64,000 bases of DNA from positions 46,624,001 to 46,688,000 of the forward strand of contig OX597831.1 of the NCBI GenBank assembly GCA_951406725.2. The letters run 5' to 3'. Position 1 is the stretch's first letter; each line of letters starts with the position of its first letter. The DNA comes from Octopus vulgaris. Its lineage: Eukaryota. Below are positions 7,446 through 62,520 of this stretch, piece after piece. The position numbers were made by a program, and so were the translations under genes. The notes under the pieces are model-generated. The model searched no databases and was not told the DNA's origin. It worked only from the letters and a program-made list of their open reading frames with translations.

Positions 7446-7985
7446 ATTATTTGTTTCCAAGTAAATTTATTCCATCTCTTTTTTGTCTATCTCCCTTTCG
7501 TGTTCTTCCTTTCTGTTTCCCTCCCACCCTTTCCCTACTGTTCTCCTCTTCCCTTCACTGCTCCCTCTCTCTCTCACTCTTCCTCCTTGACTCTCTCGTT
7601 GCTTCTAAAGACAAGATGTGATTCTACCTGTCTCTCCTCAAAGCTCGTTTTTCCAGCGCTCACCACTTCACATTGTCTTGGCTTAACAACCCTTACCGTT
7701 TGTTTTTACTGTTTTGTTCTCACTGTTCTGTTTTTACTACCACTTTCACCCTCCGTAAAAATTCCCAAATTTTATTTAATTTGCTTTGCAGGAAGAACTG
7801 TTTAAAGAAGTCGCGTCTTGTCGTTACATTCGAACGCGGAATAGATAAAACAGGGGACAACTGATGAAGGGAATGTTCTTTATTTTGCATGTCTCGTTTC
7901 TCATTCTGTCTACGATTTTTTATGTCCTGTACCCATATTTGCATGTATATATACATATATATTTAGGTATGTTCATATATGTATG
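7446..7985 (+). mobile_element. (TA)n-flanked non-coding repeat carrying hammerhead core pieces; same family as 36285-36930
   Basis: Aligns in reverse complement with 36285-36930; contains GGGGACAA-CTGATGA at 7853-7867. Confidence 0.65.
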
Positions 7986-8019
7986 CATACATACATACAT
8001 ACATACATATATATATATA

Positions 8020-25588: not shown

Positions 25589-25623
25589 ATTTCACGTTTC
25601 GAGCGGAGCTCTTCATCAGAAAT
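25589..25623 (-). ncRNA. Minimal hammerhead motif with GUG at the cleavage site (likely inactive)
   Basis: attt-CTGATGA-a-GAGC tcc GCTC-GAAA-cg-TG-aaat; related to 47633-47670. Confidence 0.6.
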
Positions 25624-25695
25624 ATAGAAAAAGTCATATTCATTTATTCTTTTATTCCTTTACTTGTTTCAGTGAACGGCCATGATACTGGAGCA

Positions 25696-36264: not shown

Positions 36265-36284
36265 ATATATAAATATATGCATAT

Positions 36285-36930
36285 ATACATATATATATGT
36301 ACATACCTACATATATATGTATATATACATGCATATATGGGTAGAGGACATAAAAAAATCGTAGACAAAATGAGAAGCGAGAACAAAAAAAAACAAAAAC
36401 ATAGAAAACGAACTTTTGTTCGAACAACGAAAGAAACAATCAGAGAAACGAGACACGCAACATAAAGAATATTCACTTCATCAGTTGTCCCCTGTTTTAT
36501 GTACTCCGTGTTTCGAAGGTAGGGACAAGACGTGACTTCTTTAAAACAGTCCTTCCCGCAAAGCAAATTAAATGAAATTTGAGAATTTTTGCAGAGAGTG
36601 AAAGTGGTAACAAAAACAGGACAGTGAGAACAAAACAGTAGAAATAAACGGAGAGGATGTTAAGCCAAGACGATTTGAAGTGGTGAACGATGGAAAAACG
36701 AGCATTGAGAAGAGACAGGTAAAAGCATGTCTTGTCTTAGGAAGGAAGTGGAAGAAAGAAAGATGGATGGCCGTTGGTCACGTGTGAGCAACGGGAGAAT
36801 CAAGGGGGAAGAGTGAGAGAGAGAGGGGAACGGTGAAAGGGAGAAGAAAAGAATAGGGAAAGTGTGGGAGAGAAAAACAGAAAGGAAGAACTAGACAGGG
36901 AGATAGAAAAAGTAGAGATAGAATAAGAGG
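36285..36930 (-). mobile_element. (TA)n-flanked non-coding repeat with hammerhead core pieces (family of 7446-7985)
   Basis: Reverse-complement similarity to 7446-7985; CTGATGA at 36484-36478. Confidence 0.65.
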
Positions 36931-36937
36931 GCGCATC

Positions 36938-36990
<53 letters not shown>

Positions 36991-58359: not shown

Positions 58360-59500
58360 AGAGTTTTTCAGGTAGGCGTCTTGGCCAATTGTAGCAATCT
58401 TCATTGTTAATGGCAGTTGTAAAAGTCTACTGCATCCCACTTTTCTTAGCAGATAAAGTCGTTCTATATTTGCCTTAGGGTGGTGCATTTGATAAAGGTA
58501 GCTTGCACACATTTATCGAGGCCAAATTGCATCCTGATGTCATCACTGAATTGTTTAACAATCGCTAGTAAACCCTTGCGTTGTTGGTCATTTTTTGCAA
58601 ATAGCTTTAAATCATCCATGTAAATGAGATGATTTATATTTTTATCAAACATTTTATAACCGTACTGTGCATCATTGAACAATTTTGAGAGAGGTATTAA
58701 GGCTAGATAAAAGAGTATTGGTGATAGTGAGTCACACTGGAAAATGCCACATGAAATCTTTACATCTCCAGCATTTAGGGATTCATTGTCACTGTTCAAA
58801 GTCAGTGTGTTTCTCCATGATCGCATACTTACAGACAAAATGTTTCGCAGAGTAGGAACTATTTTATACATTTCCAGACATTTCTGAATCCAGCTATGTG
58901 GTAGGCTATCAAAAGCTTTCTTATAGTCTATCCAGGCTATTGACAAGTTTTTGAGTCGTTTGTGACTATCTTCTTAGATCTTATTGATGAGTAGCTGATC
59001 TTTACAACCATAAGATACACGTTTACATCATTTTTGCTCATTAGGGAATATGCTACATTCTATTAAAAAAACTATAGGTATATTCAGTCAGGACAGATGT
59101 TAGCGTTTCATACATTGTTATTAAACAGGTTATGGGTCGATAATTTTTTGGTTCATTTGTTTCTTCCCTTTTTGGAAGTAGGAATGTTAAACCATTAACT
59201 AGCCAAGAGGGCATCATACTAGGATGTTGCAAAATATCGTTGTAAAGTTTTGTTAGTGGTTCGTGGCTCTCTGGGAAGGCGTTCAACCAGAAGTTAGGAA
59301 TTTTATCCTTTCCTGGAGACTTCCATTTGCTTGACCTCCTTCTACCTTGACACCCTCCCACTTTTGCTCCTCTAAGGAGTCTAAGTCTGTAGATATTCTA
59401 TCAATCCAAGGGGCCTTTTCGTTGTTTGTTTTTTCTTCTGCTCAAATTTTATTCCAAAATTCCTGCACTTCTTCTTTTGATGGGACAGACTTTACTGTAA
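58360..59500 (-). mobile_element. R4/Dong-like LINE reverse transcriptase fragment
   Basis: WKSPGKDKIPNFWL, NYRPITCL, AWIDYKKAFDSLPHSWI, GIFQCDSLSP, HLIYMDDLKL and FGLDKC motifs. Confidence 0.92.
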
Positions 59501-61476: not shown

Positions 61477-61609
61477 CCTACCTACTTACCTACCTACCTA
61501 CATACCTATCTATCTATCTATCTATTTATCTTTCTATCTATCTATCTGCGTCTGTGTGTGTATGTATGTATGTATGTATGCATGTATGTATGTAATGAGC
61601 GATTCAATG

Positions 61610-62520
61610 TCATCCCAGTTGATTGACCTGGACATAGGAAGCTCTACAATCTACAAAGTTAACAATCACAGCCGGCATATTATTTCTGCTTGCAACTGCC
61701 CTCTAGAACAGGAAAGTAACTCCAGATATGAAAGTACCTCGACCATGAAAGTAACTCCAGATATGAAAGTAACTTGACCATGAAAGTAACTCCAGATATG
61801 AAAGTACCTTGATCATGAAAGTAACTCCAGATATGAAAGTACCTTGACCATGAAAGTAACTCAAGATATGAAAGTATCTTGACCATGAAAGTAACTCCAG
61901 ATATGAAAGTACCTCGACCATGAAAGTAACTCCAGATATGAAAGTAACTTGACCATGAAAGTAACTCCAGATATGAAAGTACCTTGACCATGAAAGTAAC
62001 TCCAGATATGAAAGTACCTCGACCATGAAAGTAACTCCAGATATGAAAGTAACTTGACCATGAAAGTAACTCCAGATATGAAAGTAACTTGACCATGAAA
62101 GTAACTCCAGATATGAAAGTACCTTGACCATGAAAGTAACTCCAGATATGAAAGTACCTCGACCATGAAAGTAACTCCAGATATGAAAGTACCTCGACCA
62201 TGAAAGTAACTCCAGATATGAAAGTACTTCGACCATGAAAGTAACTCCAGATTTGAAAGTACCTCGACCATGAAAGTAACTCTAGATATGAAAGTACCTC
62301 GACCATGAAAGTAACTCCAGATTTGAAAGTACCTCGACCATCTTCTCACAGCTACAAATTCTGCCTTCCCCTACCGGATCCAAAATACCAACCGCGCTTT
62401 TCATTAGCTTAACCACCTCTTTTCTTCATGCTCCCTCAACTCCTTTTCCCAATGGACAACGCGTCTCTGTATACAGGTCTCCTCCAAAATAGAGTCTTCT
62501 TGCTCTCAAATACTGTTTCA
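61610..62520 (+). pseudogene. Decayed Penelope-like RT split by a minisatellite
   Basis: KVNNHSRHIISACNCPLE before the array; KYLDHLL...IQNTNRAF...LLFPMDNASLYTG after it. Confidence 0.7.
61712..62340. repeat. 35-bp minisatellite, ~18 copies (TGAAAGTAACTCCAGATA + TGAAAGTACCTCGACCA)
   Basis: Directly visible tandem array with 18+17 subunit structure. Confidence 0.97.

Follow-up and report, generated by a model that had tools for sequence, protein, structure and literature searches.

The hammerhead ribozyme is described in terms of three blocks, S, G and C, which in the main text of Eckert et al. 2023 (PMC10085705) are assumed to be unbroken, giving six possible orders. Three of these (CGS, GSC and SCG) are the circular permutations known as types I, II and III. 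Of the remaining orders, type SGC (HRIMA-1 and its variants) was validated, all sequences coming from metatranscriptomes, and type CSG was previously represented by two metagenomic sequences only. Among retroelements, Penelope-like elements (PLEs) carry minimal type-I hammerheads with the order C, G, S, which dimerise via a palindromic helix III (sections used here of Cervera and De la Pena 2014, PMC4209133), and non-LTR retrozymes, which are non-coding, tandem-forming, ribozyme-bearing and related to PLEs, are defined by type-I hammerheads in the parts of the preprint cited here (bioRxiv 10.64898/2026.07.22.740005). For the Naiads, an abundant clade of PLEs, the sections consulted of Craig et al. 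2021 (PMC8557442) report no canonical hammerhead; 10 consensus sequences are flagged as 'core' and 8 as 'half core', and the absence is taken there as a sign that the ribozyme is dispensable.

We analysed 64,000 nucleotides of the Octopus vulgaris genome (contig OX597831.1, positions 46,624,001 to 46,688,000; hereafter the window), in which two similar segments had been suggested to form a pseudoknotted or intermolecular hammerhead that is not circularly permuted. Our results support that suggestion, for which type SGC is the tested precedent as a class (main text of PMC10085705), and we conclude that the motif is a real, conserved RNA structure and, we predict, a new form of hammerhead. The non-circular hammerhead of the original prediction therefore stands, while its helix II register does not, and a fourth helix and the retroelement context of the two copies had been missed. 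We think it fairly probable that this predicted ribozyme, with its backbone open between A9 and G10.1, cuts retroelement RNA after GUC, probably when two copies dock. A full-text literature search, covering few subscription journals and the main text only of Eckert et al. 2023, returned no description of this split form or of permuted hammerheads in Naiads.

The repeat family and its copies in the window

Both motif copies lie where they had been placed, at 7811-7876 on the forward strand and 36470-36535 on the reverse strand, and they are 78% identical to each other over about 485 nt. The damage described for each of them is also present (Table 1). The pattern CGTC-N12-16-GAA-N20-30-CTGATGA matches the window only at these two copies, against 0.02 matches expected and with at least two matches in 0 of 100 shuffles, a surprise that is overstated because the pattern was derived from these same copies. 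An Rfam scan had no hammerhead among the best 150 of its 327 matches.

Table 1 Coordinates of the repeat copies and of their motif elements in the window.
Feature	Position	Strand	Remarks
Copy 1 of the non-coding Penelope-like repeat	7467..8007	+	5'-truncated, between TA-rich repeats; blastn against natural copies L003 and L007 and against copy 2
Copy 1, strand a (upstream 5' strand of helix II, positions 10.1-10.5)	7792..7796	+	Damaged, 3/5 pairs
Copy 1, strand b (5' strand of fourth helix)	7798..7804	+	One T short
Copy 1, internal loop between fourth helix and helix III, 5' side	7805..7811	+	GAA, which we take to be loop-E-like
Copy 1, helix III 5' strand and GUC	7812..7817	+	Predicted cut 7817/7818, from family covariation and the 5'-end pile-up in family copies
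Copy 1, helix I strand d	7818..7824	+	
Copy 1, block G	7827..7838	+	Strand a' 7827-7831; GAAA minus one A; helix III 3' strand 7834-7838
Copy 1, internal loop 3' side and strand b'	7839..7853	+	Loop side AGUA in the family; b' at 7846-7853
Copy 1, helix I strand d' and CUGAUGA	7854..7867	+	Motif ends at A9
Copy 2 of the repeat	36270..36956	-	
Copy 2, strands a (36555-36551) and b (36549-36542)	36542..36555	-	Intact: helix II 5/5, fourth helix 8/8 pairs
Copy 2, helix III 5' strand, GUC, d, a', GAAA, helix III 3' strand	36507..36534	-	Predicted cut 36529/36528; helix III 3/5 pairs (CpG-type decay)
Copy 2, strands b' and d' and CUGAUGA	36478..36499	-	Helix I 7/7 pairs

The family had been thought to consist of these two copies; instead it is dispersed, with 4,122 first-look candidates across the genome searched (2.8 Gb in 227 contigs). 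A pattern for the intact core returned 119 matches with helix III fixed (control 0) and 1,609 with helix III free (control 1), and an exact 65-letter pattern was found in 0 places. The repeat unit measures about 650-890 nt, and tandem copies are spaced by about 760-890 nt. Two subfamilies are older, A (that of the window copies) and B, and two are more uniform, C and D; an exact 25-mer of the uniform ones had 1,089 matches.

The 5' ends of family copies vary, and most copies stop within about 300 nt past the motif; they show 5' truncation, partial tandems, inversions and TA-repeat targets, and often carry a short tail beyond the 3' end which repeats the start of the unit. In the sections of Craig et al. 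2021 (PMC8557442) used here, 5' truncation, tandems, inversions, the tail and (TA)n targets are PLE traits, and the window family shows the traits listed for a non-autonomous PLE. Naiads share all of them, and several of their consensus sequences have the same RNA arrangement in the 3' part, but the window family, in loci with 1.5 kb flanks, showed no protein gene: these loci yielded no linked open reading frame for a protein, no frame with an N-terminal GIY-YIG and a C-terminal reverse transcriptase, and no autonomous partner. A Pfam search with three decayed frames of one copy of the Naiad-type family described below (L161) gave no match. As no protein frame is tied to the window family, it is taken as non-autonomous, and its carrier would be a non-autonomous PLE moved by the protein of a Naiad-type or other PLE. 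The four properties listed above for non-LTR retrozymes apply to it as well, but its units carry the non-circular form and not a type-I hammerhead.

Beside one family copy, a Neptune-like element has left a decayed frame for a C-terminal GIY-YIG and a cysteine linker (L105:2260-2900, reverse strand), which was set aside as an autonomous partner because it looks like a separate neighbouring insertion. Near the unit start, L003, L106 and L118 read AAGTAAG, similar to a 5' splice site, and Penelope elements contain an intron close to the 5' end. Copy 1 reads TTTGCAG ahead of strand a, but a 3' splice site there is discounted in subfamilies A and B, most copies of which read GCGG; in subfamilies C and D, whose copies have GCAG immediately before strand a, such a site may exist. 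At L106:1462-1578, contig depth in one sequencing run (X10), whose label as RNA is a guess, was about 9,600 on the motif and about 200 alongside.

Core letters and helices of the motif

Covariation was assessed from 132 distinct copies, of which 94, many of them picked by patterns that fix core letters, retain all three core elements of the hammerhead (CUGAnGA, GAAA and NUH); these 94, with GTC, GAAA and CTGAnGA, were used and the other 38 dropped as damaged. The 16.1-15.1 pair is TA in 94/94 copies. The proposed order NUH, GAAA, CUGAUGA, that is blocks S, G, C, holds across the family and corresponds to none of the three circular permutations. A conventional GAAA-helix III farther downstream, named beforehand as a sign against the proposal, was not seen in the family copies displayed. 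Helix I, between GUC and CUGAUGA, pairs across the family and covaries at three positions (TA 59/CG 33, TA 50/CG 34 and CG 77/TA 7; n = 94), and so does helix III at two (CG 61/TA 20 and GC 63/AT 18; n = 94), although the helix III count was partly fixed by the search patterns.

Helix II as first drawn (ACATTC/GAATGT) joins the two-copy family as the part of the observation that fell, the copies, the order and helices I and III being retained. It is peculiar to the letters of copy 1 (the family has mostly CCTTC) and would require three additional bases following A9; the only pairing that the nucleotides past CUGAnGA offer the strand before GAAA is unvarying G.U. The partner of the pre-GAAA strand is GAAGG, about 26 nt upstream of the cut and about 20 nt upstream of the position at which the motif had been taken to start. 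With this strand, 81-84 of 87 copies are paired at each of the 5 positions (7 further copies lacked full alignment to the upstream strand), and the closing pair G10.1-C11.1 is GC in 80 of the 87. Position 4 reads GC in 61 copies, CG in 15, CC in 2 and GG in 0 (1 if L149, dropped by the 5' filter, is counted), so that a pre-GAAA strand CGTTC faces an upstream strand GAACG. The CG pairing was predicted from 3 copies; 13 further copies were then fetched by the 3' strand alone, and it was found in 11 of the 12 that had G at the tested position on the 3' side. The bases after CUGAnGA are unmoved by this change (AGGG in 14/17). Duplex energies are -4.9 to -5.7 kcal/mol with the upstream partner and -0.2 to -3.1 kcal/mol with the downstream one, and no downstream register was accepted as the main pairing, all of them being weaker and without covariation.

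Because the helix II partner lies upstream of the cut site, the backbone would be open between A9 and G10.1. We know of no tested hammerhead with a break at this point. As a counter-point, a G two bases after A9 could pair with C11.1 in 81/94 copies of the window family and in 49/50 of the Naiad-type family, and an extra base at the A9/G10.1 junction is known from viroid and Penelope hammerheads (in the sections used of PMC4209133 and PMC3705267).

The fourth helix has its 5' strand directly after strand a and its partner just before helix I strand d', and the order of the whole motif is a, b, helix III 5' strand, GUC, d, a', GAAA, helix III 3' strand, b', d', CUGAnGA. In 18 hand-picked copies b/b' is 97.8% paired and changes on both sides (UA in 6, CG in 11), and taken together helices II, III and the fourth reach 98.1% pairing, compared with 40-48% when the partners are slid, with two-sided change in each. 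All four helices show compensatory changes between subfamilies, which are a handful of subfamily events linked by descent and not independent events. The fourth helix and helix III make up one rod with a purine-rich internal loop. The isolated b to b' segment folds as this rod in 5/5 natural copies; the whole motif did so in only 4/8, with z-scores of -0.9 to +1.1, minimum-energy folding being uninformative for a knotted fold.

With type SGC, as described in the main text of Eckert et al. 2023 (PMC10085705), the motif shares the order S, G, C, the short linker between helices I and II, all core letters, and a fourth helix that links helices I and II at their far sides, although its 5' strand here lies upstream. 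It differs in three respects: block C (helix I strand, CUGAnGA and helix II strand), unbroken by definition in type SGC, is split at A9/G10.1; strand a of helix II and strand b of the fourth helix stand upstream of the cut; and both strands of the fourth helix run on into helix III. No helix II strand of the SGC kind, within 1-2 nt after CUGAnGA, was found apart from a possible weak G.U register. Joining A9 to G10.1 yields the SGC strand cycle, and the motif is therefore a circular permutation of a non-circular class, opened within the core; type CSG is a permutation of the same cycle, but one opened between blocks. The motif would thus break the assumption of uninterruptible blocks and would put non-circular hammerheads in animal genomes at high copy.

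Naiad elements and the 5' ends of copies

A second family in the octopus genome, which matches the 3' end of published octopus Naiads, had 356 matches (control 0). Among 50 copies with full spacing it shows the four helices in other letters, 36-50 of 50 being paired per position, and G10.1-C11.1 is paired in 42/50; the downstream alternative for helix II fails at its third pair (0/50). The joint between helix III and the fourth helix (L121-L140, L302-L371) has a 3-base bulge, tandem G.A and U.U (TGA in 37/50; AATGAT in 38/50 and AGTGAT in 5/50), a pattern resembling a kink-turn.

We read other animals by eye in the consensus file of one paper (PMC8557442, File S5), covering 60/81 places with CGAAAC, 58/62 with CTGATGA and 30/43 with CTGAAGA, together with parts 12, 15 and 19; such a reading would miss motifs split across line ends or with other core letters. 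The same order with other letters occurs in the octopus Naiads, in Naiad_Amil, Naiad_Aacu and Naiad_Anas (Acropora), and in Naiad_Bfor, Naiad_Plae and Naiad_EuTe, and the hosts with this arrangement in the Naiad 3' part are octopus, coral, comb jelly, acanthocephalan and clam shrimp. In the clear cases helix II has 6 bp, its strand lies 1-2 nt before the fourth helix and its first pair is G-C; strand a of the Naiad forms always starts with a G facing the C before GAAA, and the bases past CUGAUGA are not conserved. In the coral and comb-jelly forms the fourth helix is long and its joints are flexible, in Naiad_EuTe a 1-base bulge separates a helix III of 10 bp from a fourth helix of 5 bp, Naiad_Bfor has a helix I of only 2 bp with an insert, and part 25 holds an imperfect case of the same order. 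By the same reading, the 3' ends of five nematode Naiads (Nbra 1-3, Hcon and Hpol; parts 14-15) are of type CSG with four helices. Several Naiads, such as the bivalve ones, Ppla and Dcar, show no motif in the portions of File S5 covered. Part 16 contains a cut site, a helix I strand, a local hairpin that may be helix II, GAAA, the helix I partner and CUGAAGA.

Where Craig et al. saw no canonical hammerhead and inferred dispensability, several Naiads appear, in the portions of the file covered, to carry permuted hammerheads. It is nearly as likely as not that a core split at A9/G10.1 and active only on loop-to-base docking is the ancestral Naiad ribozyme in at least five animal phyla; if true, this would, with the nematode CSG forms, overturn the view of Naiads as a clade without hammerheads.

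For a census of 5' ends, copies were picked by an anchor downstream of the motif, and ends were counted in 26-nt windows after and before the predicted cut. Subfamily A had 21 ends after and 2 before the cut (n = 70, p = 3e-5), subfamilies C and D had 19 and 2 (n = 70, p = 1e-4), and the Naiad-type family, with 6 and 10 (n = 70), had no pile-up, which is thus present in two of three samples. A sample anchored on GAAA, which shares some copies with that of C and D, reproduces this edge: of its 70 ends, about 20 fall at +3 to +11 and 4 at -2 to -41. One copy begins exactly on the first base past the predicted cut. The ends are spread over 0 to +25 and not concentrated at the cut, and stalling of the reverse transcriptase or microhomology could be another source of this spread. 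The edge itself would be explained by a template whose 5' end is the predicted cut; a Poseidon element is known to prime reverse transcription internally (PMC11167929). Contigs from four sequencing runs had no pile-up of ends and no informative joints. The predicted ribozyme of the window family was likely active in the family's past, and the pile-up would offer a genomic read-out of cleavage for PLEs. In L166, L218/L233, L379 and L412, inverted 5' segments turn or end a few bases past the predicted cut.

Proposed mechanism and alternatives

To the observed letters, order, covariation and pile-up of 5' ends, the reading that we favour adds a rod fold and docking, which we infer. Each copy would form a rod of roughly 20 bp (fourth helix, internal loop and helix III), its loop carrying the cut site, d, a' and GAA, and its two tails being a and d'-CUGAnGA. 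If the known hammerhead shape is taken as the starting point, in which helix II stacks on helix III and helix I lies alongside helix II, the fourth helix would have to join the top of helices I and II, yet both of its strands fix it to the bottom of helix III. Since a straight rod cannot return its own tails to its own loop, the tails would come from a second copy, in a tandem transcript or on another molecule, with the loop of one copy docking on the base of the other. With straight rods, as expected for subfamilies C and D and for Naiad_EuTe, one molecule could not close, but two antiparallel copies could. A requirement for two copies would tie cutting to tandem transcripts, as proposed for ordinary Penelope hammerheads, and the 3' cleavage product would become the template for reverse transcription, giving short insertions that start just past the cut. 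The likeness to the Penelope type-I hammerheads extends to retroelement class, terminal-repeat position, proposed two-copy action and G10.1-C11.1 (sections used of PMC4209133), but in the window family each copy closes its own helix III, and the helices formed between copies would be I and II. If two docked copies are indeed required, such a hammerhead could also be put to use as an RNA logic part.

The same split core and four helices could instead work within one molecule, the rod bending at its internal loop so that the fourth helix lies alongside helices III and II, which we consider unlikely but deserving of weight. The kink-turn-like pattern of the Naiad-type family would suit such a bend, whereas subfamilies C and D carry a symmetric 5x5 purine-rich loop, a kind of internal loop that is usually straight, and the 1-base bulge of Naiad_EuTe (read by eye) should be unable to make a U-turn. 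In its favour, the nematode CSG forms, again by eye, have long fourth helices with 0-1-nt linkers and short ones with 12-16-nt linkers, and SGC RNAs, some without a linker at the same place, cleaved in vitro (main text of PMC10085705). On geometric grounds we hold docking to be distinctly more probable than a monomer for the window family; in octopus Naiads, with their kink-turn-like joint, and in the coral and comb-jelly forms, with their flexible ones, a single molecule may be able to fold.

We find it improbable that the motif is an ordinary type SGC, in which helix II would form with the bases after CUGAnGA (one extra base, G.U) and the upstream strand would act as an off-switch. With one base skipped, the first three positions do pair in 85, 93 and 89 of 94 copies, and Penelope hammerheads usually have an unpaired base between 9 and 10.1 (sections used of PMC4209133); these pairs, however, are mostly G.U and never covary, the fourth position is paired in 41/94, the downstream duplex is the weaker one by the energies given above, and the coral, comb-jelly, acanthocephalan and clam-shrimp forms, by eye, have no G at that place. 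Slightly more improbable still is a structure derived from a hammerhead that does not cut and is retained as a signal for protein binding or for pausing of the reverse transcriptase. The scatter of 5' ends over 25 nt could reflect stalls, the Naiad-type family lacks the pile-up, and the hammerhead of a Poseidon element needed protein in order to cut, while insertion in vitro went ahead without the ribozyme (PMC11167929), but CUGAnGA, GAAA, NUH and the A-U and G-C pairs are kept across families with no helix letters in common, and the number of 5' ends drops at the predicted cut. Fortuitous pairing in a repeat that evolves neutrally, as the unremarkable folding energies and the descent shared by the subfamily changes might suggest, is scarcely credible when four helices covary in the family and are found again, in other letters, among unrelated Naiad families.

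Three other features lie in the window. At about 25590-25625 on the reverse strand, another repeat family carries an ordinary minimal Penelope-type hammerhead core in the usual order, with CUGAUGA, one extra A, a 4-bp helix II and GAAAC. A stop-free piece of a non-LTR reverse transcriptase, 169 residues long and with YMDD, lies at about 58467-58973 on the reverse strand, and a tandem array of a 35-nt unit, the units being about 95% alike, occupies 61598-62457.
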